From Candidatus Nomurabacteria bacterium (GTDB lineage Bacteria; Patescibacteriota; Minisyncoccia; Phycocordibacterales; UBA9973), in assembly GCA_943359365.1 (NCBI GenBank), contig CALRHG010000002.1, positions 1 through 57,309 on the forward strand: 57,309 nt of DNA, in the 5' to 3' direction. Made by a program: the position numbers and the translations under genes. Shown piece after piece: positions 16,470 through 55,372 of this stretch. Each line of letters begins with the position of its first letter. Position 1 is the first letter of the stretch. The notes under the pieces are model-generated. The model worked only from the letters and a program-made list of their open reading frames with translations. It was not told where the DNA came from and ran no database searches.

Positions 16470-16640
16470 CAAGCGTTGAAGGGGACATCACCCCTGAGCT
16501 TTGGGAAGAACACTAGCTAGAACCGTTCTTGCTAGTATGTAGAACCCAGTAAATGAGAAGCAACAAAGGTGGTACCACGGGTGAGAAACTCGTCCTTGTA
16601 TAGCAATTTTGAATTGTTGTACGAGGACGGGTTTTTTTAT
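16470..16640 (+). promoter_or_regulatory. T-box leader (Ile-specific candidate) with intrinsic terminator upstream of ileS
   Basis: T-box sequence AACAAAGGTGGTACCACGGG at 16562-16581. Terminator CTCGTCCTTGTA (16589-16600) pairs with TACGAGGACGGG (16620-16631) followed by T7; the 5' arm can instead form an antiterminator. Candidate specifier ATC-A lies in the hairpin loop GGGG-ACATCA-CCCC (16481-16494). Confidence 0.75.
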
Positions 16641-16644
16641 TTAT

Positions 16645-19600
16645 ATGAACGAAGAAAATAAAAATTTAAAGAGTGATGCAGCAAAGCGCGAAGAAGCGGT
16701 TTTGGAGTTTTGGAAAGAAAATAAAATTTTTGAAAAGTCTTTGGACCAGACGAAGAAGGGAAAAGAATTTATTTTCTACGAAGGTCCGCCGACGGCGAAT
16801 GGGAAACCGGGGATACACCACTTGGAGGCTCGCGCTTTCAAGGACGCGATTCCGCGGTACAAAACGATGCAGGGTTTTCATGTGCGCCGAAAGGGCGGGT
16901 GGGACACGCATGGTCTGCCGGTGGAACTTCAGGTGGAAAAAAAACTTGGGCTGAATTCTAAAAAAGCGATTGAAGAGTACGGTATAGAAAAATTCAACAA
17001 AGAATGCAAAGAGTCCGTCTGGGAATATTTGGATGTATGGAATAAATTTACGAAGCGCATTGGTTACTGGGTGGATCAGGATAAGCCGTTTGTCACTTAT
17101 GAAAATGATTACATTGAATCCGTATGGAATGTGCTGAAAAAAGTTAATGACCAGAAATTACTTTTCAAGGATTACAAAGTCGTGCCATGGTGCCCGAGAT
17201 GCGGCACAGCTCTTTCTTCGCACGAGCTCGCGCAGGGGTATGAAGATGTGAAAGATTTGTCTGTTTATGTGAAATTTAAAGTGAAAGGAGAAAAATTTAA
17301 GGATACGTATATATTGGCTTGGACAACGACACCTTGGACCTTGCCAGGGAATGTTGCTTTGGCTGTGGGTAAAGACATTAAATATTCTTGGATTCAGACT
17401 GCCAACGATCTTTATATTATAGCTTCGGATTTAATTCCAAAATTATTTACTTCAGAAACAATTAAAGTAAAAGATGAATTTTATAGTAAAGATTTAATTG
17501 GTTTAGAATACGAACCGCTTTTTTCTTTTCTTGCGGATGGTATTTCTGAAAGTGAAAAACCGAAATTGGGAAAAGCTTTCAAGGTATATGCAGCGGATTT
17601 TGTAAACACTCAGGACGGTACAGGCATTGTTCACACGGCCGTCATGTACGGACAAGATGACTTCGCGCTTGGAACGGAAGTTGGCTTGCCGAAGCATCAT
17701 TTGGTGAATCTTGAGGGTAAATTTATAAAAGGCACAGGGTTTTTGGAGGGCAGATTTGTGCGGGAAACGGACCCGAACGGCAAGCCGACGCTTGCGGTGG
17801 ATATAATTGACGACTTAAAGAAAAGAAACTTATTTTTCAAACAGGAAAATTACAAACACTCATATCCGCATTGCTGGCGATGCAAAACCGCGCTCATATA
17901 TTACGCGCGGGATTCTTGGTATATCCGAATGTCGGATCCAAAAATCAAAAAAGAGCTCATCAGCGAAAATAAAAAAATAAATTGGGAGCCGGAATATATC
18001 CGCGAGGGCAGGTTTGGCGAATGGCTCAAAGAGATAAAAGATTGGGCGATATCGCGCGAACGGTACTGGGGCACACCTTTGCCGGTATGGATATGCACGG
18101 ACTGCAAAAAAACTGAGGTCGTCGGAAGTATTGAGGACTTGAAAGAAAAAACAAAAAAGTCCGGCAATAAATATTTTGCTATGCGGCACGGGCAAGCGGA
18201 TAATAATGTAAATGATTTTCATTATAGGGAATTGCAGGAAAGTGCCGCGCTGACTGAGATAGGAAGGGATCAGATAAAAAAAAGTATCAAAAATTTCAAC
18301 CACAAAATAGATGTTGTAATTTCTTCTACTTTAAAAAGAGCCAAACAAACAACACAAGTAGTTTGTGAAAATATTAAATTTCCGCTCGAGAATGTTGTTT
18401 ATGATGAACGCGCAAGGGAGTGGGAAGTCAGCTCTCTTTTTGACGGCAAAGAAAGGGTTGTGTTTAAGAAATATTACAATGTAGATTACTTAGATAATCC
18501 AGGGGAAGTTTTGCCGGAAGGGGAGAGCTTCGCTCAAGTGATTAAAAGAGTCGGAGATTTTATTTATGATTTAGAAAAAAAATATTCAGGCAAAAATATT
18601 CTCATTGTCGGACATGAGGGAGCGACGCGAGCGCTTAGCTTTCTGGCAAAAGGTTTGTCCTTTAGCGATTTGTCGAGCGAGAATGACCCGCTCGTTTCTC
18701 TCAAAAATGCAGAAATCAAAGAATTTAATTTTGTGCCGCTTCCGCATAATGAAAATTATGAATTAGATTTACACAAGCCTTTCATTGATGAAATAAAGCT
18801 TTCTTGCAAATGTGGCGGCGATCTCATACGCACAAAAGAAGTCATGGATGTCTGGTTTGATTCTGGCGCAATGCCTTTCGCGCAGGATCATTATCCGTTT
18901 GACCCCACACCAAAGCAAGCTTGGTACGGGGCAGGAAATAAAAAGTCTCAGCAGATTTTATATCCAGCTGATTTCATATGCGAAGCAGTAGATCAGACTC
19001 GCGGCTGGTTTTATACTCTGCACGCTGTCGGAATTTTGATGGGGCGGGGGAAGGCTTACAAAAATGTGATCTGTCTCGGACACTTGCTCGATGCTAATGG
19101 CAAAAAAATGTCCAAATCTATCGGCAACGTCGTCGACCCGTGGATCATGATGGAGAAATACGGGGTGGACACGCTTCGGCTTTGGATGTATTCGGTTAAT
19201 CAGCCCGGCGAATCGAAAAATTTTGATGAAAAAACTGTGCAGCTGCTTCACAGCCAAGTTTTCGGCCTGCTTTACAATGTACTGGCGTTTTATGAGTTGT
19301 ACCGTGACAAGAATTTAGAAAAAAATGACAAGCTTAAATCAAAAAATATTTTGGATGTTTGGATTTTGGCAAGGCTTGATGAACTTGTGAAGCTCAGCAC
19401 GGAAAATTTGGATAGTTACAAATTGCTTGAGCCGGTGCGTGGAATGCGGGATTTTATCGGCGACCTTTCGACATGGTACTTGCGCCGCTCGCGCGAGAGA
19501 ATTAAAAATGACGACAAAGACGCTAAACAAACTTTGTATTTTGTTTTGAAAAGCTTGGCAAAAATTCTGGCACCCTTTGCGCCTTTTACGGCAGAAGATA

Positions 19601-20643
19601 TTTGGCTTAAGTTAAAAACCAAAGATGATGTAGAAAGTGTGCATTTAGCTGAATGGCCGAAGGCAGGCAAAATTCATTCTGGTATTCTTGAGAATATGAG
19701 AATAGTTAGGAATATTGTGAGTTTAGGGCTAAAAGAAAGACAGAAAGCAATATTGCCTGTGCGTCAAACACTTTCAAAACTTGAAGTGAAAAATTTTGAT
19801 TTGAGCAAAGAATATATTGAACTCGTAAAAGATGAGCTGAATGTGAAAGAGGTAAAGCAAAACAAAAATCTTGAAGCTGAAGTCGCGCTTGATACCACAA
19901 TTACTCCGGAGCTCAAAGCCGAAGGGGATTATCGCGAATTTATGCGCTCCATCCAAGACAAAAGAAAAGAATTAAACCTAGCACCTAGCGATAAAATGGC
20001 ACTTCCAGTGGAAACAATATACAAGATATACAAAATAATGCCTGTATTGGAGATGCACATGCTTCGCGTGGCAGCTGTGGCAACTCTCATCTGCGACAAT
20101 TTTGAGGGATTTGTGCCGAAAGAAGAAATAATCACGGTTTGCTTGCTGCATGATATGGGTAATATTATCAAATCAAATTTTGAGTTTATGCCGGAATCAT
20201 TGGAACCGGAGGGGTTGGAATATTGGCAAAATGTAAAAGATGAGTTCGTAAAAAAATACGGAAATGATGAAGAAAAAGCTCACGGGAAAATCATGGAAGA
20301 AATTGGTGTGTCTAAAAAAATAATAGGACTTGTGAACAAAATTAGCTTTAAATACGCTTGTGATTATAAAGAAAATAAAGACTTTGTTATTAAAATAATA
20401 AATTATGCGGATTGGCGAGTCAGTCCTTGTGGTGTAGTTTCTTTTGATGAACGCATGATTGAATCAAAGAGTCGCTACAAACTTAAAACCAAAGCTGAAG
20501 AAGACGAACGAGAAAGACTGATTATTTGTGCCAAAGAAATCGAAAAGCAAATTTTCGCTAAATGCAAAATAAAACCGGAGGATATCAACGATGAAACTGC
20601 GACGCCAATAATTTCAAAACTAAAAAATTTCATGATAAAATAG
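16645..20643 (+). CDS. ileS: isoleucyl-tRNA synthetase with an inserted histidine-phosphatase domain and a C-terminal HD domain
   Basis: Start set at ATG 16645, after the T-box terminator. Motifs GIHHLEA (HIGH), editing TTPWTLPGN, and KMSKS. Extra RHG..../VGHEG domain at ~18160-18765 and an H..HD domain at ~20010-20640. Confidence 0.95.
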   Translation: MNEENKNLKSDAAKREEAVLEFWKENKIFEKSLDQTKKGKEFIFYEGPPTANGKPGIHHLEARAFKDAIPRYKTMQGFHVRRKGGWDTHGLPVELQVEKKLGLNSKKAIEEYGIEKFNKECKESVWEYLDVWNKFTKRIGYWVDQDKPFVTYENDYIESVWNVLKKVNDQKLLFKDYKVVPWCPRCGTALSSHELAQGYEDVKDLSVYVKFKVKGEKFKDTYILAWTTTPWTLPGNVALAVGKDIKYSWIQTANDLYIIASDLIPKLFTSETIKVKDEFYSKDLIGLEYEPLFSFLADGISESEKPKLGKAFKVYAADFVNTQDGTGIVHTAVMYGQDDFALGTEVGLPKHHLVNLEGKFIKGTGFLEGRFVRETDPNGKPTLAVDIIDDLKKRNLFFKQENYKHSYPHCWRCKTALIYYARDSWYIRMSDPKIKKELISENKKINWEPEYIREGRFGEWLKEIKDWAISRERYWGTPLPVWICTDCKKTEVVGSIEDLKEKTKKSGNKYFAMRHGQADNNVNDFHYRELQESAALTEIGRDQIKKSIKNFNHKIDVVISSTLKRAKQTTQVVCENIKFPLENVVYDERAREWEVSSLFDGKERVVFKKYYNVDYLDNPGEVLPEGESFAQVIKRVGDFIYDLEKKYSGKNILIVGHEGATRALSFLAKGLSFSDLSSENDPLVSLKNAEIKEFNFVPLPHNENYELDLHKPFIDEIKLSCKCGGDLIRTKEVMDVWFDSGAMPFAQDHYPFDPTPKQAWYGAGNKKSQQILYPADFICEAVDQTRGWFYTLHAVGILMGRGKAYKNVICLGHLLDANGKKMSKSIGNVVDPWIMMEKYGVDTLRLWMYSVNQPGESKNFDEKTVQLLHSQVFGLLYNVLAFYELYRDKNLEKNDKLKSKNILDVWILARLDELVKLSTENLDSYKLLEPVRGMRDFIGDLSTWYLRRSRERIKNDDKDAKQTLYFVLKSLAKILAPFAPFTAEDIWLKLKTKDDVESVHLAEWPKAGKIHSGILENMRIVRNIVSLGLKERQKAILPVRQTLSKLEVKNFDLSKEYIELVKDELNVKEVKQNKNLEAEVALDTTITPELKAEGDYREFMRSIQDKRKELNLAPSDKMALPVETIYKIYKIMPVLEMHMLRVAAVATLICDNFEGFVPKEEIITVCLLHDMGNIIKSNFEFMPESLEPEGLEYWQNVKDEFVKKYGNDEEKAHGKIMEEIGVSKKIIGLVNKISFKYACDYKENKDFVIKIINYADWRVSPCGVVSFDERMIESKSRYKLKTKAEEDERERLIICAKEIEKQIFAKCKIKPEDINDETATPIISKLKNFMIK

Positions 20644-28373: not shown

Positions 28374-28411
28374 ACCTCACCCCAGCCCTCTCCTTGTTAA
28401 GGAGAGGGGGA
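28374..28411 (+). repeat. GC-rich hairpin repeat, family A (38 nt identical to 39184-39221)
   Basis: ACCTCACCCCAGCCCTCTCCTTGTTAAGGAGAGGGGGA. The internal stem CCCTCTCCTT/AAGGAGAGGG spans 28386-28408. Confidence 0.85.
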
Positions 28412-28452
28412 AAGTCGTTGACTTTTTTATGAAAAGGAGTAATATATAAGGT

Positions 28453-32150: not shown

Positions 32151-32187
32151 AGCAAACTTGTCAACCTGGCAGGTTGACAAGTTTGCT
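32151..32187. repeat. REP-like palindrome copy 1 (perfect 18-nt arms)
   Basis: AGCAAACTTGTCAACCTG-G-CAGGTTGACAAGTTTGCT. Confidence 0.9.
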
Positions 32188-32208
32188 GGGTTTACGGAGA
32201 ATTAAAAT

Positions 32209-34147: not shown

Positions 34148-34173
34148 TGTCAACCTGTCAGGTTGACAAGTTT
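34148..34173. repeat. REP-like palindrome copy 2 (left arm truncated)
   Basis: TGTCAACCTG-T-CAGGTTGACAAGTTT, starting 2 nt after the stop of ORF 33214. Confidence 0.85.
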
Positions 34174-34196
34174 ATAGGATTTGAGAAAATAGGGTA

Positions 34197-34883
34197 ATGG
34201 TGGGAGATATTTATCATATTTGCAATAGAGGCATTAGAAAAGAAAAAATTTTTGACAATGATGCTGATTATTTTAGATTTGTTTTGAATTTATATCGTTT
34301 GAATAATAAAGGGGAAAGTTTGAGGATGAATCCACACAGAAAATCTATTGATTCTTTTCCGGAACAAGATAAAATAGTTGAAGTTTTAAAATGGACTTTA
34401 CTGTCGAATCACTACCACCTTCTTTTATATGAAAAAGTTGACGGCGGAGTTTTAGAATTTGTTAAAAGACTCGGTAACTCATTTACTAAGTATATAAACA
34501 TCAAAAGGGAAGCTAGTGGCTACCTATTTCAAAATTCTGCCCGTATTATTCAGATTCAAAGCGATAAGCATTTTTTGTATATTCCATTTTATATTGATCT
34601 TAATTTACTGGATTTAATTTATTCAAAGACTGAACACAGGAAAATTGATATTAAAAAGTCACTGGATTTTTTCAAAAATTATAAATGGTCTAGCTTCCGC
34701 GATTATTTTGGGGATCAAAATTCCCCCTTTTTAAAAATTATAAATAAGGATTTATTTTATGAAACTTTCGATGTGAATCCTAAAACTTACCAAAAAGAAC
34801 TCTCCGATTTCTTAAAAGGGGACGAATATGAAACATTAAAATGCGATCTTATAAAAGAAAAACTTGTCGACGTGGCAGGTTGA
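34197..34883 (+). CDS. IS200-like Y1 (HUH) transposase, REP-associated tyrosine transposase (RAYT)-like
   Basis: 228 aa with YHICNRG, the HUH motif SNHYHLLL, catalytic-Tyr region FTKYIN, GYLFQ and YKWSSFRDY. Flanked on both sides by the same palindrome. Confidence 0.75.
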   Translation: MVGDIYHICNRGIRKEKIFDNDADYFRFVLNLYRLNNKGESLRMNPHRKSIDSFPEQDKIVEVLKWTLLSNHYHLLLYEKVDGGVLEFVKRLGNSFTKYINIKREASGYLFQNSARIIQIQSDKHFLYIPFYIDLNLLDLIYSKTEHRKIDIKKSLDFFKNYKWSSFRDYFGDQNSPFLKIINKDLFYETFDVNPKTYQKELSDFLKGDEYETLKCDLIKEKLVDVAG

Positions 34884-34890
34884 CAAGTTT
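34860..34890. repeat. REP-like palindrome copy 3 (two arm mismatches)
   Basis: AAACTTGTCGACGTG-G-CAGGTTGACAAGTTT. It encodes the last 8 codons and the stop of the RAYT-like gene and abuts the recA stop. Confidence 0.85.
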
Positions 34891-35958
34891 CTAGGCCTCC
34901 TCGGCAAACTTCTTTCTGATTTCTTTTAATATCTGATCAGATATTTTTTTATTCTCTTTCAGGAAAGTACGAGTAGCGTCGTAGCCCACGCCGAGCTTTA
35001 CTTTCTCTGATTTCTCCTCACCCTTGGGAAGGGGGAGGTCAGGTGGGGGTACGAAGAAATACGAATTCCCAGATTTTTCTATGATTTTAAATTTCTCTCC
35101 GAGCGCCATGATTTCGCCTTCTTTGGAAATGCCTTCATTGTAGATGATATCGAATTCCGTCTGTTTGAACGGAGCGGCGACTTTGTTTTTGACTATTTTC
35201 ACGCGCGTGCGGCTGCCCACGACTTCCTCTCCTTTTTTGATTTGGGCGATTTTGCGGATATCGAGGCGGATAGAAGTGTAAAATTTGAGGGCTTTGCCTC
35301 CCGGAGTCGTTTCCGGATTGCCGAACATTACGCCTATTTGCATGCGGATCTGGTTGATGAAAATGACAACTGTTTTAGACCTCGCGACGATGGCGGTGAG
35401 CTTGCGAAGGGCTTGGGACATGAGCCGAGCCTGCTTGCCGACATGGTACGCGCCCATATCGCCCTCGATTTCATCTTTCGGTGTCAGAGCTGCCACGGAG
35501 TCAATGACGATGACATCTATCTTGCCTGTGCGCACGAGGGACTCTACGATTTCGAGCGCCTGTTCGCCGTTGTCGGGCTGGGAGATGAGCAAATTATTTA
35601 TATTTACTCCGAGTTTTTTCGTATATTCCGGATCCATCGCGTGTTCGGCATCTATGTAGGCGCAAACTCCGCCGAGTCTTTGCGCTTCGCCGACGATGTG
35701 GAGGGATAGGGTAGTCTTGCCGGAAGATTCCGGTCCGAATATTTCTATGATTCTCCCGCGGGGGATTCCGCCCACGCCGAGCGCCATGTCGAGGCCGATG
35801 GAGCCTGTCGGGATCACATTCACGTCCACTTTAGGAGAGTCCCCAAATTTCATGATTGCTCCTTCGCCGAATTTTGTCTGAATGGATTTCAGGGTGTCCT
35901 CCAGCACAGCCATGCCTACCGTCTTGTCTTCTTTCTTCTCTTTTTTCTTGTTCATCAT
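34891..35958 (-). CDS. recA: recombinase RecA
   Basis: 355 aa with Walker [18 protein letters not shown] and [10 protein letters not shown]. Carries a short in-frame insertion ([15 protein letters not shown]) in the C-terminal domain. Confidence 0.95.
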
Positions 35959-38508: not shown

Positions 38509-38515
38509 AATTTTT

Positions 38516-38552
38516 CCCGCCTGCATCGCTTATGCGAAGCATTGCGGGCAGG
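38516..38552 (+). repeat. GC-rich hairpin repeat, family C copy 1
   Basis: CCCGC-C-TGCATCGC-TTAT-GCGAAGCA-TT-GCGGGCAGG; compare 46917-46953. Confidence 0.75.
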
Positions 38553-38728: not shown

Positions 38729-39571
38729 ATGTTGTCGGCTAATAAGGACATGAAAGAAAATATAAAAGACCCCGAACGAAAGCTCTCTGCTTCGTACGGG
38801 GCAGGCACAGAAAATATGTCCATTACATTGTCTTATACCAAGACTAATAAGCTAATTACTGCCCTATATATGGTAACGGACATAATAGACAAAGATGAGC
38901 CAATTAGAAATAAATTAAGGAGTTTGGGTGCAGAGATTATATCGGACCCCGAACGAATCCGACCTGAGGTCAGATCATACGGGGCAGGCATGTCCATGAG
39001 AATAGAGCAGATAATAGCTTTTTTAAATATCTCTTCTGCGATGAATTTTATTTCGGAAATGAACTGCAATATTCTCAAAAAAGAATTTATTGAACTGAAA
39101 GCATCAATACAGGAGGGTATGAATATGAAACCCGCTTGGCTAACAGAATTTTTTTCTGAGCCAGCGATTTCTAAATCCAATTCACCTCACCCCAGCCCTC
39201 TCCTTGTTAAGGAGAGGGGGAACCCAAATTCTAACAGACATAAAAGACATACACGTCTTGGTGTCCAAAAGGGAAGCACTCTAATGGACGCACTAAGCGG
39301 AGTAGAAATGTCCAATAGAAAATTGGATCATATAAGCCACAATGTATTTAATGAATTAAAGAAAGAAAGGCGTAATTTTATAACCAATACTATTAAAAAT
39401 AGCGGGGGGAATATTAGCATAAAGGACATATTAACTAAAATGAACGCAGTAGAAAAAAACGAACTGTCTTTTAGTGAAAAAACTCTTCAAAGAGAACTGG
39501 TGTCCATGACGAAAGACGGGATACTAAACAAAGCGGGGGAGAAACGTTGGAGCAGGTATTCTGTAAAATAA
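38729..39571 (+). CDS. hypothetical protein with a C-terminal winged-helix-like domain; contains three in-frame GC-rich hairpin repeats
   Basis: 280-aa ORF (alternative start ATG 38816). The C-terminus ISIKDILTKMN....SEKTLQRELVSMTKDGILNKAGEKRWSRYSV looks wHTH-like. Confidence 0.5.
   Translation: MLSANKDMKENIKDPERKLSASYGAGTENMSITLSYTKTNKLITALYMVTDIIDKDEPIRNKLRSLGAEIISDPERIRPEVRSYGAGMSMRIEQIIAFLNISSAMNFISEMNCNILKKEFIELKASIQEGMNMKPAWLTEFFSEPAISKSNSPHPSPLLVKERGNPNSNRHKRHTRLGVQKGSTLMDALSGVEMSNRKLDHISHNVFNELKKERRNFITNTIKNSGGNISIKDILTKMNAVEKNELSFSEKTLQRELVSMTKDGILNKAGEKRWSRYSVK
39184..39221 (+). repeat. GC-rich hairpin repeat, family A copy 2 (inside ORF 38729, read as SPHPSPLLVKERGN)
   Basis: 38 nt identical to 28374-28411. 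Confidence 0.85.
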
Positions 39572-39648: not shown

Positions 39649-39657
39649 TTATCCACA
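39649..39657 (+). promoter_or_regulatory. perfect DnaA-box 9-mer TTATCCACA upstream of the promoter-like TATAAT at 39689
   Basis: GTTATCCACAT 11-mer identical to those at 45328 and 53603. 31 nt separate the box from TATAAT (39689-39694). Confidence 0.4.
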
Positions 39658-44845: not shown

Positions 44846-45217
44846 ATGAATACAAATATGAGCAAGAAAAATATTGTTATCGCGGTTTTGGTGGTTTTGG
44901 TTGTAGTGGGGGTTGGTTTTTGGATGAAAAAGCAGAATGCAGAGAGTATGTATTCTATTGTGTATTTAACGACTAAGGAAGTATATGTCGGTAAACTAAC
45001 GACTTTTCCTGACTTACAGCTTTCGGATGGTTACATTTTGAATACTGTGCCGGATGCCACTGATCCTAAAAAGACTAATTTCCAGCTTACCCCTATGAGC
45101 GAAGCTCTTTGGGCGCCAGAGAAGGGCATACATCTCGTAAAGGACAATGTTGTCTTTTATGGAGCTCTATCGGACAATAGTTCTATTGCCAAGACTTTGG
45201 CGGAGAAGGGGAAATAA
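44846..45217 (+). CDS. hypothetical membrane-anchored protein
   Basis: 123 aa with N-terminal TM IVIAVLVVLVVVGVGFW. Confidence 0.55.
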   Translation: MNTNMSKKNIVIAVLVVLVVVGVGFWMKKQNAESMYSIVYLTTKEVYVGKLTTFPDLQLSDGYILNTVPDATDPKKTNFQLTPMSEALWAPEKGIHLVKDNVVFYGALSDNSSIAKTLAEKGK

Positions 45218-45218
45218 A

Positions 45219-45320
45219 ATTCTCCTCTTGAGGAGTACCCTGAGGCTTTTCCTCAGGGGGAGGTGGATGAATTTTGTCCACCCCGTCTCGGATTACCGAG
45301 CCACCCCTCAAGAGGGGAAT
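45219..45320 (+). repeat. GC-rich multi-hairpin repeat, family D copy 1
   Basis: ATTCTCCTCTTGAGGAGTACCCT..AGGGGGAGGTGGA..TCCACCCC..(variable hairpin)..CACCCCTCAAGAGGGGAAT. Begins 2 nt after the stop codon. Confidence 0.85.
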
Positions 45321-45515: not shown

Positions 45516-46904
45516 ATGAAAAAATTATTTAAAGGTTTAGGCATTAGTTTCTTGGCTCTAGCCCTTGTCGTGGGTGTCGGAGCAGGTTCTGCAAACGCAG
45601 CCCTTACTTTTGGTGCTACGAGTGTTACTACTGATGGAGCTTTTACGGTTACAAGTGTAGCTGGTACTTCTGTTAACATGTTTGCGGCAAATACTACTGG
45701 TTCTATAAACATCGGTGGTACTTCTCAAACTTCTGGTGCTACCACTCTGTATGGTGGTACAGGAACAGGTGCCATTACTTTGACTCCAGGAACTGCTGGA
45801 ACAATAGTTATCGGTGCTGCTGCTGGAACAGGGGCGATTAGTTTAGGTACTTCATCAGCTGCTCAGTCAATCAATATTGGTACTGGTGACGCTGTCAAGA
45901 CAATTGTCGTAGGTAATTCTACAGCCGGTGGTGCTTCTATAACTACCATCCACGCTGGTACGGGTGGTTTGAATTTGGCTACTACCGCTGACGCTCGAAC
46001 TATAGCTATCGGCACAGGCGCTGCGGCGAATACTTGGAACATTGGTACAGGTGATGCTATTCAGACCGCCAATCTTTTCACTGCTTCCTCTGCTCATGTG
46101 ATCACAATCGGTCACAACACAGCTGGTGAAGCTAGTCAGTTGATATTGGGTGTTGGTACAGGAGGTTTAAGCATTGGTACTACAGCTGATGCCAGAACTT
46201 CTAATATCTTAACCGGTGCAGCTATTCAAACAGTTAACATTGCTACTGGCGCTGCTGCGAATGTTGTAACCATTGGTTCTACGACTGGCGCTGCGTCTAT
46301 GACTTTGAATGTTGGTACAGGCAACTTTGCTTTGGTTACTGCCGCTACTTCAACTATTACTATAGGTGCTGCTCAAACATCTGGAACTACGACTCTCGGT
46401 GGTACTGCTCAAACAGGAACTATTACTCTCGGATCTTCATCAGGTACAAATATAGTTAATGTTGGTACTGGTGCAGGAGCTACCACTGTAAACATTGCAA
46501 CTGGTGTTGCCGCAGATGTTGTTAATATTGCTACTGGTGGTACTGGAGCACAAGTCGTGACTATTGGTACTGCAACTTCACGAAGTAATCTTGCTGGCAA
46601 GCTTGTTATAAGTAGTACAGAAACTATTGTAGCAGGTGGTACAACTACTGCTCTTAGCTTATTTAAACCCGTTCATTATATAGATTCTGATGCAGGTGGT
46701 GATATTTTTACTCTTGCTGATGGTGTAGATGGACAAATTACTACAATACTCTTAACTTCAAGTACTGGTGTTGCAACAGTTACTCCTGCAAATGCTGCGG
46801 GTGGTACAAGCTACACTTTAAATGCCGATGGAGAGAGTTTAATCCTTCAATTCATGGACACAGAGTGGTTTATTGTTGGAGGAAATGGTTACACAATAAT
46901 CTAA
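45516..46904 (+). CDS. secreted Gly/Thr/Ala-rich beta-solenoid-like repeat protein
   Basis: 462 aa with signal peptide ..GAGSANA. More than 20 degenerate repeats of the type x-I-G-T-G-x-A-x-x-T-x-x-I-G, then a non-repetitive ~100-aa C-terminal domain. Confidence 0.7.
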   Translation: MKKLFKGLGISFLALALVVGVGAGSANAALTFGATSVTTDGAFTVTSVAGTSVNMFAANTTGSINIGGTSQTSGATTLYGGTGTGAITLTPGTAGTIVIGAAAGTGAISLGTSSAAQSINIGTGDAVKTIVVGNSTAGGASITTIHAGTGGLNLATTADARTIAIGTGAAANTWNIGTGDAIQTANLFTASSAHVITIGHNTAGEASQLILGVGTGGLSIGTTADARTSNILTGAAIQTVNIATGAAANVVTIGSTTGAASMTLNVGTGNFALVTAATSTITIGAAQTSGTTTLGGTAQTGTITLGSSSGTNIVNVGTGAGATTVNIATGVAADVVNIATGGTGAQVVTIGTATSRSNLAGKLVISSTETIVAGGTTTALSLFKPVHYIDSDAGGDIFTLADGVDGQITTILLTSSTGVATVTPANAAGGTSYTLNADGESLILQFMDTEWFIVGGNGYTII

Positions 46905-46916
46905 TTATTTTGTTTT

Positions 46917-46953
46917 CCGCCTGCAACGCTTTAGCGTAGCACTGCGGGCAGGC
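46917..46953 (+). repeat. GC-rich hairpin repeat, family C copy 2
   Basis: CCGC-C-TGCAACGC-TTTA-GCGTAGCA-C-TGCGGGCAGG. One stem pair is swapped T-A to A-T relative to copy 1. Confidence 0.75.
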
Positions 46954-47071
46954 TTAAGTCTATTATCAACAAAAAAATATGCAGGATTTTTCTAAATCTT
47001 TCTTGCTTGCCCGCCGAAGCCTTGGCGTAGGCGGGAGGTCGAATCCTGTATATATAATCTTAAAAAACAAA

Positions 47072-48226
47072 ATGATTAATAAATTAAAATTGGGTTTACT
47101 GTCTCTAGTGGCGCTCACGCTTTTCGGATTTGTCGGTGTGCAAAGTGTAAATGCTCAAGCGTTGACTTACAGTGCAGATACGCCTATTAATTTTTCTGGA
47201 AGTGGTTATACTTTAACTATCAAGTCCGGTTCGGTAGCTACTTCAGTCGTGGTGAATGCAAGTAGCTTAGATGTGGTTGTACCGATAAGTAGTACCTTTA
47301 CTATTGCATCAACCAACAATACAGACCTTTCCGGTGTTGGTGGTGCGACCAGCACTACTAATACCTGTAGCGGTACTACCAATACTCGGGTTATTACAAC
47401 CGGAGCCGGTGATACGGGAACTTATACCATCACTCCAAACGGTAGTGTCTGTGCCGCTAGTTCTGGAGGTGGTGGAGGAGGTGGTGGGGGTTCTTATACT
47501 CCACCTGCTGCGGACACAACTCCTCCATCTGCTACTTCAGTCAGCATAAATGCTGGAGCAGTGACAAGCACTACTCTTACAGCTACTCTGACTCTCGCCG
47601 CTACAGATGCTACGCAAATGATTATTTCCAATGATGCCGGTTTTACTGGAGCACCTTGGGAAACATATGCAACTAGTAAAACTTGGACGCTTACGACAGG
47701 TGACGGAGTGAAGACAGTTTATGCTAAGTTTCGAGATGCTGCTGGTAATATGTCAACGGCCGTCTCAGACACCATAACTGTTTCTGGGACTGGAACCATC
47801 GCGGTAGTCACACCGCCTACGCAAGGTTGTTCTGGTAGTAACCAGTACAACATTTCGACTGGAGCATTGTGTGTGAACAATACTGTCAATCCTTCGGGTC
47901 AAATTCCAGGATGTGGCAATAACACAACTGGATTTAGCACAGCGACAGGTGGGTCTTGTGTTGGAAATCGTCCAACAACTGTTACTGCATCAATATCATA
48001 CAACTTAGGCACTGCTACTCTTAAAAATGGGAGTAAGGGTGAAGCAGTCAAGGAACTTCAGAGAGTCTTGAATAAGATTCTTAATCTTGGCTTGGTGGTT
48101 GATGGTAAATTGGGTCCAAAGACTATTGCTGTGATCAAAACATGGCAGAAGAATCATGGTCTCAAAGCTGATGGTCTCGTCGGTAAGCTCACAAAAGCTG
48201 CGATGAAAGCTGAAGCGGAGAAATAA
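47072..48226 (+). CDS. secreted protein with a Gly9 linker, an Ig-like domain, two Cys-loop modules and a C-terminal PG_binding_1 domain
   Basis: Start set at ATG 47072; the track start 46979 runs through hairpin repeats. Signal peptide ..VQSVNA, GDGVKTVYAKFRDAAGNMS, and C-terminus LKNGSKGEAVKELQRVL...DGKLGPKT...WQKNHGLKADGLVG. Confidence 0.7.
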   Translation: MINKLKLGLLSLVALTLFGFVGVQSVNAQALTYSADTPINFSGSGYTLTIKSGSVATSVVVNASSLDVVVPISSTFTIASTNNTDLSGVGGATSTTNTCSGTTNTRVITTGAGDTGTYTITPNGSVCAASSGGGGGGGGGSYTPPAADTTPPSATSVSINAGAVTSTTLTATLTLAATDATQMIISNDAGFTGAPWETYATSKTWTLTTGDGVKTVYAKFRDAAGNMSTAVSDTITVSGTGTIAVVTPPTQGCSGSNQYNISTGALCVNNTVNPSGQIPGCGNNTTGFSTATGGSCVGNRPTTVTASISYNLGTATLKNGSKGEAVKELQRVLNKILNLGLVVDGKLGPKTIAVIKTWQKNHGLKADGLVGKLTKAAMKAEAEK

Positions 48227-48228
48227 TA

Positions 48229-48394
48229 ATTCTCCTCTTTGAGGTGAGCTTGGGGTAGGAACCCAAGCGCAAGACCTTGAGCACTGAAAGTGCGAAAGGT
48301 GTACAGCTCCTGTAAGGAGTACCCTTTAGGGGGAGGTGGAAGAATTCATCCACCCCGCTCCGACTTTGGTCGGAGCACCCCTCAAGAGGGGAAT
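48229..48394 (+). repeat. GC-rich multi-hairpin repeat, family D copy 2 (with a ~70-nt internal insertion)
   Basis: Same termini and core as 45219-45320. Begins 3 nt after the stop codon. Confidence 0.85.
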
Positions 48395-50574: not shown

Positions 50575-50602
50575 TTGCAAAATAAAGCAAATATGTTATA
50601 GT
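50575..50602 (+). promoter_or_regulatory. sigma70-type promoter for rplJ-rplL
   Basis: TTGCAA - 16 nt - TATAGT with TGt immediately upstream (extended -10). Confidence 0.55.
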
Positions 50603-50686
50603 GGTTTTACCGCAGAGAAAGCAGGCTCAAGATTTTTCTTGTCTAAGTCCTGCCCAGTGGGTCGAGCGGTTTTGACCGTTTTTTTT

Positions 50687-50770
50687 ATTCTCCTCGTTGA
50701 GGAGTACCCTTCAGGGGGAGGTGGAGAATTCATCCACCCCGGCGCAAGCGCCACCCCTCAAGAGGGGAAT
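50687..50770 (+). repeat. GC-rich multi-hairpin repeat, family D copy 3 (inside the rplJ 5' leader)
   Basis: Same termini and core as copies 1 and 2. Ends 10 nt before the rplJ ATG. Confidence 0.85.
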
Positions 50771-50780
50771 CAAATACACT

Positions 50781-51269
50781 ATGTTACAAAAATCAAAAAA
50801 AGAAGAAATAGTGAAAGGTCTGGAGAGCGCGATAAAGGGTTCGGAGTCTTTGGTCTTCGTGAACTTCCATGGACTGAAAGTAAGCGATGAGACGAAGTTA
50901 CGACGTGAACTGCGAGCCGGAGGAGTCGGCTACAAAGTTTCCAGAAAGACTCTGCTCGCCCGCGCACTCAAAGGCAAAGCGGAGGGAGAAGTTCCAAAGC
51001 TTGATGGGGAAGTGGCTATAGCTTACTCTAAGGACGAGATAGCGAGTCCGCGCGAAGTTTACAACTTCCAAAAGACGCACAAGGGAATAGTTCTTACCAT
51101 CTTGGGAGGAATCTTTCAGGGGAAATTTGTGGGCAAAGAAATGATGATGGAGCTCGCAACCATACCAAGCAGGGAAGTATTGCTTTCCAAATTAGCGTTC
51201 TTGCTACAGAGTCCTATGCAACGCTTGGCTATCGCGGTGAATGAAGTGTCGAAAGGGAAAGGTGCATAA
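50781..51269 (+). CDS. rplJ: 50S ribosomal protein L10
   Basis: Start set at ATG 50781; the in-frame upstream part of track ORF 50697 is the family D repeat. MLQKSKKEEIVKGL...LVFVNFHGLKVSD..KLRRELR..G...KVSRKTL. Confidence 0.9.
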   Translation: MLQKSKKEEIVKGLESAIKGSESLVFVNFHGLKVSDETKLRRELRAGGVGYKVSRKTLLARALKGKAEGEVPKLDGEVAIAYSKDEIASPREVYNFQKTHKGIVLTILGGIFQGKFVGKEMMMELATIPSREVLLSKLAFLLQSPMQRLAIAVNEVSKGKGA

Positions 51270-52955: not shown

Positions 52956-53561
52956 ATGGAAATTCTGGGGAAAATACTGGGTAATCCGGCTCGAGTTAAA
53001 ATAATGAGACTATTTTTGCTTAATAGAGGCAAGGGTTTTAAGAGCAAAGATATTGCAAAGCGAAGCAGGGTTAATTCTGATACTGTTCGCAGAGAGCTCA
53101 AGGTGCTTGCTTCTGTTGGTTTTATTAAAAAGCGGGGGAGAACTTCTATGGATTGGTGTTTCAATTCCGATTTTAAATACGCGGGGGAATTTGAAGATTT
53201 ACTGGTGCGCTCTGAAAGCTTGAATAAACAAAAGATTTTAGACCATTTTAAAAAAGTCGGGCAAGTAAAGCTCTTGATAGTTTCCGGCGTATTCATTAAA
53301 AATTATGATTCCAGAGTGGATCTGCTGATTGTCGGAGACAAGATGAAAAAGAGCAAAATCGAACAGGGGATTCGCAAGCTGGAAGCGGAGCTTGGCGCAG
53401 AGCTGGTCTATGCTATTTTCAATACAAAAGAATTTATTTATCGGGTTAACATGTATGACAAGCTAGTCCGAGATATTCTTGATTATCCCAACGAGGTGCT
53501 TTTTCAAGGGAAGGAGTTATCCCCCACACTTATTTCTACTAAATATACTTCTAGAGCTTGA
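52956..53561 (+). CDS. winged-helix (ArsR-like) putative transcriptional regulator
   Basis: 201 aa with N-terminal ILGNPARVKIMRLFLLN.....SKDIAKRSRVNSDTVRRELKVLASVGFI. Confidence 0.5.
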   Translation: MEILGKILGNPARVKIMRLFLLNRGKGFKSKDIAKRSRVNSDTVRRELKVLASVGFIKKRGRTSMDWCFNSDFKYAGEFEDLLVRSESLNKQKILDHFKKVGQVKLLIVSGVFIKNYDSRVDLLIVGDKMKKSKIEQGIRKLEAELGAELVYAIFNTKEFIYRVNMYDKLVRDILDYPNEVLFQGKELSPTLISTKYTSRA

Positions 53562-53603
53562 TTTACCCTTATTTTTCAAGCTTCTGAAAATAAGTGTGGG
53601 GGG

Positions 53604-53612
53604 TTATCCACA
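53604..53612 (+). promoter_or_regulatory. perfect DnaA-box 9-mer TTATCCACA upstream of TGgTATACT at 53641
   Basis: Same GTTATCCACAT 11-mer. 28 nt separate it from the -10 hexamer ahead of gene 53694. Confidence 0.4.
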
Positions 53613-53693
53613 TAAACCCTTAAAAAGGTCTAAAATTTGGTATACTAGTAGGTAGAATTTTAAGGTCGAAACTTAAAAGGCATTTTATTAATA

Positions 53694-54437
53694 ATGGTTA
53701 ATTTTTTTATGATTGATAATTTAGGTTTGAATGTATGGGGCGATGTTTTCAACGCATCCCTTCTAGATTTGTGGGCAAGTTTTATTCAATTTGCTCCAAA
53801 GCTAGTAATCGCGATTTTGTTTTTTATAGTCGGCTGGGTTTTGGGCAGTATCATTGCTAGGGCTGTAGAGCAAGTCTTTCGTTCTATCAAGGTAGACAAT
53901 CTTTTGCGTTCTATCGGAGTAGAAAATTTCTTTAGAAAGGCGGGGCTGACTCTAGATTCCGGATACTTTGTCGGACAAGTGATAAAGTGGTTCGTGATCG
54001 TGGTTTTCCTTATCCCTTCGCTAGACTTGGTTTTTCCAGCGAATCCTTTGACAGGCACCAATGCTATAACTTCCTTCTTGAAGGATGATGTATTGAATTT
54101 CTTGCCGAAGGTAATCGTGGCGGCTCTTATCCTCATCATCGCTTCTATCGTAGCTGAAGCTTTGGCGAAGACAGTCAAGGCTTCCGCAAGAACTATGAAT
54201 CTGACTTCCGCAAACATGCTCGGCACTATCACAAAATATTCCATTTGGATATTTGCTTTGCTGATCGCGCTCGGCCAGCTCGGAATCGCTGATTACTACA
54301 TGAGCGTTCTCTTTACCGGCATCGTTGCCATGATCTCAATCGGTGGCGGACTTGCTTTCGGTTTGGGAGGCAAAGAAGCGGCTCAAAAGTTTATCGCGAA
54401 GGTGAGCGAAGAAGTTTCTCATTCTCATCACAGCTAA
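53694..54437 (+). CDS. membrane protein with conserved-TM-helix repeats (small mechanosensitive-channel-like)
   Basis: 247 aa (alternative start ATG 53709). Repeated amphipathic/TM helices of the PF05552-like type. Confidence 0.45.
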   Translation: MVNFFMIDNLGLNVWGDVFNASLLDLWASFIQFAPKLVIAILFFIVGWVLGSIIARAVEQVFRSIKVDNLLRSIGVENFFRKAGLTLDSGYFVGQVIKWFVIVVFLIPSLDLVFPANPLTGTNAITSFLKDDVLNFLPKVIVAALILIIASIVAEALAKTVKASARTMNLTSANMLGTITKYSIWIFALLIALGQLGIADYYMSVLFTGIVAMISIGGGLAFGLGGKEAAQKFIAKVSEEVSHSHHS

Positions 54438-54461
54438 ATTTTTTAAGTTTAGTTTTTTAAG

Positions 54462-54490
54462 AAAAAGCCCATAAATTATGGGCTTTTTCT
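54462..54490 (+). terminator. intrinsic terminator
   Basis: AAAAAGCCCAT-AAATT-ATGGGCTTTTTCTTTTT. Confidence 0.8.
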
Positions 54491-54511
54491 TTTTCATGCT
54501 ACAATTATGTC

Positions 54512-55372
54512 ATGAAAATAATATATAAATTTTTGATTATATTTGTAACTTTGTTTATATCAGGCAGTGCGCTGGCTACCGTCGGTGGACCGACTTTTAT
54601 ATACACTTTCAAATACAATCCGCTCGATGAGTCAGTTTATTATATCGAGAATTCTGAAAGCGGCCGAGGCTGCCCGCCGGAATTAATGAAAATATCTTTA
54701 AATTCAGGCAAAGTGGAAGTAGCCCTTTCTTGCGATGAAGGAGAAAAAATAATAGAAGGCAATGGCTATGAATTTTCGCCTGTGTATGCTGAAATTGAAA
54801 GAAGGACTGGAAGTTTTAAACAGCTGGTACCCATAAATTTGAAAGATAATAGAATTTCTATTGATGTTTCTTTCGTGAATTATACGAATTTTAGCCCGGA
54901 AATCTCTGAAATAAAAAATGCTAATTTTGTCGCTTCAGTTTATCAGGACAACAAAAAAATTCTTGATTTTCCCATAAGTGGCTGCAGTTTGAAACAACCT
55001 TTCGTTTTCGGAGGCTATGCAGTGCCGGGTTTTGATAAAAAAATTGTCCTGCTTCTTTCTGCGAAGGGGGATTGTTGGGAGGGAGGCTATATTTATGAGT
55101 CTTTGCATGTTGTTGGCGGCGTAAGTAATCTGGACAAAACATATCTTGGCAATTTTTATAAAGGGCCGTCGGCTTTAGTCCCCAATGAAGGCACTTTGGT
55201 TGTTTTTGAAGCGGACACTATAAACAAAAACATTGCAGCAACGAACAATCCTGAATTGTCTGCAGAAACTGATGCTAATTCTAAGAATACCGGCATGATT
55301 CCATATGCAATTTTAGCAGTTGTTCTAGGGCTGGGATTGGGGTATTTCTTTGGGCGAAAAACGAAAAACTAA
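54512..55372 (+). CDS. hypothetical exported protein with a C-terminal TM anchor
   Basis: 286 aa with signal peptide ..SGSALA and C-terminal helix IPYAILAVVLGLGLGYFFG. Confidence 0.55.
   Translation: MKIIYKFLIIFVTLFISGSALATVGGPTFIYTFKYNPLDESVYYIENSESGRGCPPELMKISLNSGKVEVALSCDEGEKIIEGNGYEFSPVYAEIERRTGSFKQLVPINLKDNRISIDVSFVNYTNFSPEISEIKNANFVASVYQDNKKILDFPISGCSLKQPFVFGGYAVPGFDKKIVLLLSAKGDCWEGGYIYESLHVVGGVSNLDKTYLGNFYKGPSALVPNEGTLVVFEADTINKNIAATNNPELSAETDANSKNTGMIPYAILAVVLGLGLGYFFGRKTKN

Follow-up and report, generated by a model that had tools for sequence, protein, structure and literature searches.

A 57,309-nucleotide contig of a Candidatus Nomurabacteria bacterium (CALRHG010000002.1, assembly GCA_943359365.1; the window, by which we mean this whole stretch of DNA) contains three copies of a GC-rich repeat with several hairpins, here called family D. 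Two copies lie directly behind stop codons and the third lies just ahead of rplJ, the gene for ribosomal protein L10, which raises the question of whether the repeat is a regulatory RNA, a piece of coding sequence or mobile DNA. Comparison with related loci indicates that family D is probably a mobile element of Patescibacteria (Nomurabacteria/Paceibacteria) that is small, GC-rich, palindromic and non-autonomous. The element is multicopy, common to several species, gained and lost at orthologous sites and tolerant of translation, and its copies persist where they are harmless: at or after stop codons, in operon spacers and in in-frame linker loops of housekeeping proteins. An initial annotation, made from the sequence of the window, had suggested a miniature inverted-repeat transposable element (MITE) or a repetitive extragenic palindromic (REP) sequence, and this has turned out to be the right neighborhood.

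Structure of family D and its recurrence in the window

The three copies first proposed were all recovered, on the + strand and with the invariant blocks common to all: copy 1 at 45219..45320 (102 nt), copy 2 at 48229..48394 (166 nt, delimited by folding and sequence reading) and copy 3 at 50687..50770 (84 nt). A covariance model built from family members matches only these copies in the window and scores copy 1 at 88.8 bits, copy 3 at 88.5 bits and the stretch of copy 2 that it aligns (48303..48394) at 54.5 bits. The window has exactly three occurrences of the 3′ 19-mer CACCCCTCAAGAGGGGAAT, where chance would give 0.01; its sole other near-match there is the reverse complement of a copy's own 5′ arm, and GGGGGAGGTGGA likewise occurs exactly three times. 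Fold energies of −60.6, −89.2 and −43.5 kcal/mol were obtained for copies 1, 2 and 3, with z scores of −7.0, −8.0 and −4.1 relative to dinucleotide shuffles, and every copy adopts a closed multibranch fold in which a 15-bp end-to-end stem surrounds three hairpins (five to six in copy 2). Motif counts, z scores and the covariance model thus bear out the description of a dispersed, structured, GC-rich repeat. The minus strand of the copies folds almost equally well, which is expected of a palindromic DNA element and alone is no pointer to RNA. Rfam contains no family that matches the copies at gathering score or, with E values up to 10, beyond noise, and a tRNA/tmRNA search found none.

In copy 1, folding and sequence reading place the 5′ arm of the closing stem P1, ATTCTCCTCTTGAGG, at 45219..45233, where it is itself palindromic (CTCCTC-TT-GAGGAG). 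It is followed by hairpin P2, CCCTGAGG-CTTTT-CCTCAGGG (45238..45258), by hairpin P3, GGAGGTGGA-loop-TCCACCCC (45259..45284), in which a Shine-Dalgarno-like GGAGGTG is paired with TCCACC, and by the variable palindrome P4, CTCGG-ATTA-CCGAG (45287..45300), one of about eight recurring P4 types. The 3′ arm of P1, CCTCAAGAGGGGAAT (45306..45320), was located by motif search and lies within a 19-mer common to several phyla. Copy 2 carries GCTCCGAC-TTTG-GTCGGAGC as its P4 (48357..48376) and copy 3 carries GGCG-CAAG-CGCC (50741..50752). The initial reading of this architecture holds: the ends pair through the closing stem and are both local palindromes, the GGTGGA/TCCACC hairpin is conserved, and the hairpin that follows it differs between the copies yet pairs in all three. 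From its fold and its alignment to the model, copy 2 is a canonical element whose 5′ closing arm (48229-48244) is set apart by an additional internal segment of about 73 nt with two hairpins (48245..48317), inserted between that arm and AGTACCC; a related segment is also found in one relative (L118).

On sequence reading, the element is built from a double-hairpin module of about 40 nt that is present twice, in inverted orientation and in diverged form. One copy, TCCACCCCG-(palindrome)-CACCCCTCAAGAGGGGAAT, makes up the right arm and the other, ATTCTCCTCTTGAGGAGTACCC-loop-GGGGGAGGTGGA, the left; when the right arm is reverse-complemented, to give ATTCCCCTCTTGAGGGGTGG-(palindrome)-CGGGGTGGA, it aligns with ATTCTCCTCTTGAGGAGTACC-(palindrome)-GGAGGTGGA of the left arm. 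Symmetric doublets of near-identical inverted modules occur in two Paceibacteria loci (L011 and L081). In single-stranded form, as DNA or RNA, the element closes by pairing of its outer 15 nt around the three hairpins. The terminal inverted repeats (ATTCTCCTCTTGAGG against CCTCAAGAGGGGAAT) form 15 bp with one T-G and are paired in about 99% of alignment cells. The left terminal hairpin has two substitutions, C to T and G to A, that restore each other's pairing locally (CTCCTC/GAGGAG versus CCCCTC/GAGGGG), so that each end keeps its own hairpin and the ends still pair with one T-G.

A census with the covariance model returned 101 sense-strand copies, 99 of them distinct, in 100 sources (the window and 99 related loci). 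The relatives are all metagenome-assembled genomes (MAGs), some with unreliable taxonomic labels. Members are 80 to 170 nt long, too short for any enzyme open reading frame (ORF) to fit inside, vary in the length of P2 and share the consensus (A)ATTCTCCTCTTGAGG-AGTA-CCC(loop or longer stem)GGG-GGAGGTGGA-loop-TCCACCCC-G-(palindrome)-CA-CCCCTCAAGAGGGGAAT.

Identical copies, filled sites and empty sites

One 86-nt sequence is identical at four unrelated loci (tgt, uvrD and two others), and the same 86-mer also occupies the same tgt site of two genomes in which the flanking codons differ right up to the boundary of the element. Copies within a genome are no more alike than copies from different genomes (mean identity 0.809 versus 0.805), and of 45 copies, only 11 have their nearest neighbor in the same genome.

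Occupancy of orthologous sites was examined in UvrB and in the spacer upstream of rplJ. Among 80 UvrB orthologs of Nomurabacteria/Paceibacteria (L219-L298), the segment IRPTGL...TTLTK is 50 aa long, and hence empty, in 32, and holds in-frame inserts of 1 to 46 aa in the other 48. Family D accounts for three of these inserts and the short module alone for one; the remainder come from several unrelated GC-rich families (e.g. ..LRHSHSVLEGQ..RSEYSS.., ..GQTFVNGLAGVGDPENRGPE.. and ..PLLAKERG..). The UvrB linker is thus an insertion hot spot.

A similar picture was found at copy 3, which lies between a terminator-like hairpin with a T-run (50660..50686, + strand), closing a conserved leader, and the ATG of rplJ (50781..51269, + strand), and ends 10 nt before that ATG. 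Family D is present at this site in only three of 80 relatives; most spacers are empty (e.g. CCGTTTTTTTTGTTTAAAATTATG), and at least four other element families occupy the spacer among these 80 loci. In L303 a different element sits between flanks, TTTTTTTT and CAAATACA, identical to those of the window. The conserved leader stops at the T-run just upstream of copy 3. Accordingly, while the 10-nt distance to the start codon reported initially is correct, the assignment of copy 3 to the rplJ leader is not: the low occupancy among relatives and the other families in the spacer identify it as an optional hot-spot insertion outside the leader.

Copies inside genes

Approximately one third of the family lies within coding sequence. 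Gene calls in the related loci rest on a crude ORF heuristic, and ten host genes were verified by Pfam. By this measure, 37 of about 100 copies lie in the sense orientation within ORFs, 34 of them in host ORFs of at least 200 aa. The entry frame is constant in all 37 (xAT TCT CCT ...), and 33 have a length that leaves a remainder of two on division by three, so that the net gain (length minus 2) is a multiple of three; the lengths of intergenic copies fall in every class. Nine sense hosts were confirmed by Pfam (UvrB, PheT, PolA, IF-2, Tgt, UvrD/PcrA, RsmA, an FAD-linked oxidase and phosphoglucomutase), as was one antisense host, RNase R. In most of these, domains are recognized on either side of the insert or one domain spans it; for RsmA and the FAD oxidase, the domain reported extends up to the insert on one side only. 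The insert usually falls in an inter-domain linker and sometimes inside a domain (RNB, TGT, UvrD_C). The initial annotation had noted that one frame is open through all three copies and had regarded the resulting ORFs as spurious; the frame is indeed open, but the in-frame copies in relatives are more than spurious.

Complementary information comes from the intergenic copies. For 21 of these, including 18 adjacent to a stop codon, the flanking ORF termini were compared and proved to be those of complete neighboring genes, and no gene split by an out-of-frame copy was found in this sample. The gene pairs concerned include S15 and the next gene, rplJ and rplL, HtpX and GatC, and GyrA and a methyltransferase, the names being read from terminal peptides and not from Pfam. 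The conserved open frame, the length class and the lack of split genes argue for translation of in-gene copies and against their excision or bypass. They would be read as a loop of about 27 to 30 aa rich in Pro, Gly and Glu.

The peptide itself is not what is conserved. A difference of 1 nt in the P2 loop turns YPLGGGG.. into YPKGEVDEF.., some copies end in ..PPLKRGI instead of ..TPQEGN, and about eight antisense in-gene copies, such as that in RNase R, are read as NSPLEGW...SSRGEL. Comparison of these sequences thus locates the conservation at the nucleotide and not the peptide level.

Pairing statistics and the variable hairpin

The initial annotation described the variation among copies as compensatory, which, understood as RNA covariation, did not survive comparison of the 99 distinct copies. 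The stems are near-invariant, with 99.1% of cells paired; no more than 4 of the 28 pairs show any double change, and of the 15 cells that changed, 12 represent a single C-G to U-A switch in P2 common to 12 copies. Variation is concentrated in P4, for which 49 distinct sequences fall into about eight types (including CTCG-CAAG-CGAG, CTCGG-ATTA-CCGAG, CTTTG-AGTA-CAAAG, GGCG-CAAG-CGCC and GGC-TTTC-AGCC). The same P4 types recur across genomes, combined with differing P2 and loop variants. The pairs within P4 comprise 145 Watson-Crick pairs and only 2 G-U pairs, and occasional unpaired mutations are present. In a helix under selection as RNA, one would normally expect G-U pairs to be tolerated. 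These discrete, perfect palindromes and the near absence of G-U pairs point to swappable, DNA-level palindromic cassettes, unlike RNA-style covariation.

Insertion sites, stop codons and orientation

The sequences that flank the copies are biased. T is found at position −3 in 60% of copies, A or T at −2 in 89% and A at −1 in 66%, and on the far side A is found at +1 in 53% and at +2 in 65%. The element begins with ATTCTCC (93%) and ends with GGGGAAT (90%), and the consensus reads T-W-A, then ATTC...GAAT, then A-A-W. We compared models with an external target-site duplication of 2 to 3 bp, with an AAT or an AT duplication and with none, and none was singled out; the in-gene arithmetic fits either insertion of TTCTCC...GGGGAA between A and T of the host without duplication or a 2-nt AT duplication.

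Eighteen of about 30 intergenic copies with an upstream gene on the same strand start −1 to +3 nt from its stop codon, window copies 1 and 2 among them, and several antisense copies abut the stop codon of a gene on the other strand. In the window, the TAA (45215-45217) of ORF 44846-45217 ends 1 nt before copy 1, and the TAA (48224-48226) of the gene at 46979-48226 ends 2 nt before copy 2. Both copies had been described as following envelope genes. The adjacency is as described, but an envelope domain (PG_binding_1) is recognized only in the gene upstream of copy 2, that upstream of copy 1 having no significant Pfam match. The stop-codon adjacency probably arises because the preferred site resembles T-W-A-A-T-A-A, which holds stop triplets. 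In very short spacers selection must contribute as well, by removing insertions that hit promoters and ribosome-binding sites, and adjacency in long spacers is only partly explained.

The copies also show a strong bias of orientation: sense copies outnumber antisense copies by 37 to about 8 within genes and by 24 to 6 between co-directional genes. The number of open frames is similar on the two strands (1.22 sense versus 1.05 antisense). The bias is therefore intrinsic and reflects either a strand-specific insertion mechanism or selection on transcripts; these two cannot be separated here because gene and replication direction coincide in the window.

An intrinsic terminator was also considered for the stop-adjacent copies and was rejected: the 3′ flanks are A-rich with no U-tract, and a scan of the + strand called no terminator-like site after copies 1 and 2.

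Alternative explanations

The chief functional alternative is that family D is a cis-acting RNA, kept in the sense strand as a REP-like 3′-end protector, as operon punctuation or as a modulator of translation. The sense dominance, which stop-codon content does not explain, would suit such a role, as would the frequent start within a few nucleotides of an upstream stop, the very stable folds, the lack of an intrinsic terminator after copies 1 and 2, and a U-G pair in P1 that is kept in 97 of 99 copies where the other strand would have a C-A mismatch. We nonetheless consider an RNA role unlikely. The stems are invariant and show no covariation, the scarcity of G-U among the 147 P4 pairs is unlike a selected RNA helix, and Rfam offers no match. 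The copies are optional at orthologous sites, where unrelated elements stand in the same place, and in the third of them that fall within ORFs, the structure has to be melted by the ribosome. The bias itself could equally come from strand-specific insertion, gene and replication orientation being coincident.

If family D were instead a conserved protein-coding module, with intergenic copies as decayed gene fragments, one would understand why one frame is open in most copies and why 37 are read in frame within ORFs. This explanation is effectively refuted by the shifting peptides that the same nucleotides yield through 1-nt loop differences and by the antisense reading; moreover, conservation tracks stems and not codons, the host proteins are unrelated and usually receive the insert in inter-domain linkers, and other copies stand directly after stop codons. 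No protein domain conserved at the amino-acid level, which the initial annotation had raised as the finding that would tell against a repeat element, was thus encountered. Removal of in-gene copies from the mRNA, or skipping by the ribosome as for byp of yeast mitochondria and T4 gene 60, is suggested by the closing stem, which brings the two ends together, and by the matching AAT triplets at the start and end of most in-gene copies. Neither an open frame nor a length class would be expected of a sequence that is excised or bypassed, and both are found: the frame is open in each of the 37 sense copies within ORFs (the host ORF having the length given above in 34), and 33 share the length class, against every class between genes. 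With no split gene in the intergenic sample, we judge removal or bypass highly improbable. Chance, low complexity or assembly error has only the GC-rich, simple composition of the repeat to recommend it and can be given negligible weight, given three occurrences where 0.01 were expected, a copy number above 100 across MAGs that stem from many independent studies, and in-frame copies that recur at the same sites in independent assemblies.

Several observations weigh against a mobile element, and we set them beside the evidence above. The conserved blocks are near-invariant in hosts that have diverged by 20-30%, which is unusual for decaying selfish DNA, and the sense bias of 4-5 to 1, which is not due to stop codons, could reflect selection at the RNA level. 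Translation of the in-gene copies is a prediction from frame conservation. Direct repeats in the flanks exceed expectation modestly (28 versus about 17 for 2 nt and 11 versus about 4 for 3 nt, of 100, the expectations being our own arithmetic from column frequencies), and five identical, presumably young, copies show no consistent target-site duplication. No near-identical pair of empty and filled alleles was met, and a metagenome search for an empty copy 1 locus gave no hit. No transposase was recognized in the window ORFs scanned (five of the 46 called, at 291-647 and 52956-55372, were left out), between inverted module pairs (ORFs were checked in L033 only) or beside the modules examined in Thermotogaceae and Kapabacteria neighborhoods, this search covering the window and the related loci retrieved. 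Nor was a RAYT (Y1 transposase) gene found in the window ORFs scanned.

An autonomous parent insertion sequence with the same ends was likewise sought and was not met in the loci searched, which held no widely spaced end pairs enclosing a transposase. Inverted end pairs 60-4000 nt apart were tabulated in 217 loci; nearly all are spaced by 80-212 nt, and the wider-spaced ends in L033 merely link neighboring short elements.

Hosts of family D and a module common to many phyla

Two genome scans were carried out with 19-mers from the two ends, and all their counts are lower bounds. In a scan of one genome per species, the 5′ 19-mer was found in at least 118 stretches, nearly all labeled Patescibacteria (Nomurabacteria, Paceibacteria, "Saccharibacteria" third-party MAGs, Gracilibacteria and Minisyncoccia), with several copies in some MAGs. 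A few matches were labeled otherwise (Simkania, Limisphaerales, Burkholderiales). The closest relatives of the window L10 and of the elements are Nomurabacteria/Paceibacteria MAGs.

Some of the odd labels are themselves questionable. MAGs labeled "Burkholderiales" (JAMPXW01; L195/L246/L347), "Nanoarchaeia" (DATDXK01; L302) and "Simkania" (JAGXTH01; L002/L115) have Nomurabacteria-like content, either in UvrB or L10, at 76-84% identity to the Nomurabacteria proteins, or in the form of full family D elements. On this basis the labels or the binning of these records look wrong, and the "Burkholderiales" MAG, with Nomurabacteria-like UvrB and L10, appears to be mislabeled.

The 3′ 19-mer is distributed more widely. 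It was found in at least 119 stretches, with 141 occurrences among the matches listed, of which 26 are full elements and 95 are the short form TCCACCCCG-(palindrome)-CACCCCTCAAGAGGGGAAT, usually followed by T. This short form, the 3′ half of the element, occurs alone in at least eight phyla besides Patescibacteria. Its carriers include the Bacteroidota isolates Pedobacter mendelii, Parasediminibacterium sp. and Flavobacterium sp., Ignavibacteria/Kapabacteria chromosomes, and one termite-gut Bacillota MAG with the short form at more than 10 loci; further matches are labeled Thermotogaceae, Nitrospirota, Desulfobulbaceae, Limisphaerales, Hyphomicrobiales, Bdellovibrionales and Sulfurovum. By our own arithmetic, about four matches to a 19-mer would be expected by chance in a collection of this size, and a chance origin is excluded by the number observed, by the clustering within genomes and by the common upstream CCACCCCG box. 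Perfect palindromes are likewise present in the short module of other phyla. No description of this cross-phylum motif came up in literature searches that used sequence strings or topics. No match to the element was found in plasmid and phage collections, and one viral contig carries the 19-mer. A protein search with the doubled element peptide gave two hits, the word index used being ill suited to a 29-aa motif.

Comparison with known elements

The closest functional analog of family D is the Rickettsia palindromic element (RPE). RPEs (Ogata et al. 2000, 2002, as summarized in PMC10969869) are likewise dispersed palindromic repeats of about 80-150 nt without a transposase of their own, situated both intergenically and in frame inside unrelated housekeeping genes, where they add a short peptide, in bacteria with reduced genomes that depend on a host. 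The resemblance is functional only, with no sequence relationship shown, and the hosts of family D belong to another phylum. Family D differs further in being GC-rich in an AT-rich genome, in forming a four-way junction from two diverged inverted modules, in sharing a 27-nt core with repeats of other phyla, in its strong adjacency to stop codons and in the many sister families that compete with it for the same hot spots.

Other classes share some of these traits and fail on others. Family D fits the usual description of a MITE (under about 500 bp, not coding for a transposase, multicopy, with terminal inverted repeats, here of 15 nt), and bacterial MITEs such as Correia, ERIC and the Coxiella QMITEs (PMC5896051) are also co-transcribed with their neighbors and occasionally form in-frame fusions. 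Unlike these, family D has a far higher in-gene fraction, and neither a demonstrated target-site duplication nor, in the loci searched, a parent insertion sequence with matching ends. The likeness to REP/REPIN elements lies in an inverted doublet of a short palindromic module with decayed singlets (95 of the 141 listed 3′ occurrences in family D) and a location at gene ends; REPs lack a target-site duplication, and none is clear in family D. REP/REPIN elements are reportedly mobilized by RAYT, a Y1/HUH transposase, and REPs near stop codons affect mRNA stability and translation; REPs are reportedly strictly extragenic, however, whereas about a third of family D copies are intragenic. The GC clusters of fungal mitochondria, and the double-hairpin and byp elements, are GC-rich hairpins that invade compact AT-rich genomes, and family D also enters coding regions and hot spots; those elements are organellar, and byp is bypassed by the ribosome with no need to keep frame, in contrast to family D. 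Palindromic elements derived from IS200/IS605 (PATEs) share with family D hairpins at both ends, a strand bias and a preference in the 5′ flank; they have no target-site duplication, and none is clear in family D. Family D differs in its true terminal inverted repeats and in hairpins that lie only 2-3 nt from the ends, its flank motif T(60%)-W-A(66%) is degenerate with no fixed tetra- or pentanucleotide, and no TnpA was found in the loci searched.

Beyond all of these known examples are the core common to several phyla, the guild of sister families at the same hot spots, and the identical element at the same site in diverged genomes. Literature searches by topic and by sequence string found nothing that links such elements to Patescibacteria.

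Possible mobilization and effects on the host

As a non-autonomous element, family D would be mobilized in trans by a separate enzyme. Our leading guess is an enzyme of the single-strand HUH/Y1 type, since hairpins stand 2-3 nt from each end, no duplication is clear, the copies show a strand bias and the architecture is one of doublets and singlets. By analogy, the logic of REPIN/RAYT and IS200/IS605 may be closer than that of MITEs moved by cut-and-paste DDE transposases, and we advance this tentatively. Against it stand the degeneracy of the flank motif, the presence of true terminal inverted repeats and the copies within genes, and no such enzyme was found in the loci searched.

We also speculated that the double-hairpin module CCACCCCG-hairpin-CACCCCTCAAGAGGGGAAT could be the substrate of a widespread enzyme acting on single-stranded DNA, with family D as one of a guild of elements in Patescibacteria that have ATTC...GAAT termini and replace one another recurrently at the same sites; this is a doubtful proposition at present. 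Bearing on it are the differing elements between identical flanks in the window and L303, and the same 86-mer at the tgt site of two diverged genomes. If it were true, the guild would keep supplying essential proteins with new loops, and 3′ untranslated regions (UTRs) with new structures, recurrently at the same sites, with a mobility resembling cassette exchange that has not been described for MITEs, REPs or RPEs.

At the RNA level, copies 1 and 2 would be co-transcribed as 3′-UTR structures of the genes upstream, and a ribosome could arrive at the stop codon only by unfolding much of the 15-bp stem. In Escherichia coli, REP elements within about 15 nt of stop codons have effects on mRNA decay or termination, and by analogy copies 1 and 2 could have a putative effect of the same kind. 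Copy 3, in the rplJ 5′ UTR, would place a structure of −43 kcal/mol 10 nt before the start codon, with GGAGGTG and GAGGGG sequestered. On the reading of family D as a mobile element, any putative effect on 3′-end stability of mRNA, on termination at stop codons or on rplJ initiation would be a by-product.

The genomes of Patescibacteria are tiny and gene-dense, and the usual picture of these bacteria is one of streamlining; a guild of GC-rich palindromes would extend the "selfish DNA in genes" of Rickettsia to a second host-dependent lineage. In practical terms, such elements create spurious ORFs, inflate protein lengths and break homology-based domain calls, and binning may be misled because the same 19-mer is present in many phyla. 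The elements are also natural experiments on loops of proteins that tolerate insertion, and the cross-phylum module points to a conserved mobilizing or binding activity.

Genomic context and other repeats of the window

The window is AT-rich (about 42% GC), with genes almost all on the + strand and a rising cumulative GC skew, and contains housekeeping genes, with a 23S rRNA gene at its end. Promoter-like sequences of the next gene lie downstream of both copy 1 and copy 2.

The rplJ leader upstream of copy 3 (approximately 50600-50686), with the order TACCGCAGAGAAAGYAGGC...TAAGTCCTRYTTAGTGGGTCGAT...hairpin...GCCGTTTTTTT, is conserved in the window and about 80 relatives (L299-L378). It ends in the terminator-like hairpin and has no match in Rfam, and may be a divergent L10-leader attenuator. 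Between this leader and the ATG, eight genomes (L299, L305, L307, L308, L328, L338, L359 and L373) carry an element of about 120 nt (..cggtacggatttttt.aagcttaaaaaatcctgaagttctcggctcg.cagcctcgaaacccc..), and about nine carry a member of a further family (gaaaataaggagcatagcgactatatttt..).

A second GC-rich palindromic family, ACCTCACCCCAGCCCTCTCCTTGTTAAGGAGAGGGGGAA, occurs in the window as a 100% identical pair at 28374-28412 and 39184-39222, one copy 2 nt after the stop codon of the methionyl-tRNA synthetase (MetRS) gene and the other in frame within ORF 38729-39571, where it is read as NSPHPSPLLVKERGN. This family behaves like family D and has similar ends (AATTC...GGGGAA); a relative of it fills the rplJ spacer in L303 and, in L100, is nested in a family D copy, within the P3 loop. 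A third repeat, TTTYCCGCCTGCA.CGCTT..GCG.AGCA.TGCGGGCAGG, forms a GC-rich hairpin and is present at 38513-38552 and 46913-46952 with 85% identity, the second copy lying 9 nt after the stop of ORF 45516-46904. The palindromic box TGTCAACCTGNCAGGTTGACAAGTTT (32159-32193, 34148-34182 and 34865-34899) looks like an operator or other regulatory site and not a mobile repeat; two of the boxes lie 14-15 nt upstream of the ORF starts at 32209 and 34197, the products of which have no Pfam match.

A perfect 9-mer resembling a DnaA box, TTATCCACA, occurs on the + strand at 39649, 45329 and 53604 (three occurrences against 0.38 expected), each time downstream of a gene end and about 30-40 nt upstream of a −10-like TATAAT or TATACT, and may be a promoter-associated motif. 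Its reverse complement, TGTGGATAA, follows the family D copies in L152 and L214. Finally, the isoleucyl-tRNA synthetase ORF of the window (16609-20643, 1344 aa) contains a complete histidine-phosphatase domain (His_Phos_1) at residues 524-703, in the middle of its catalytic domain.

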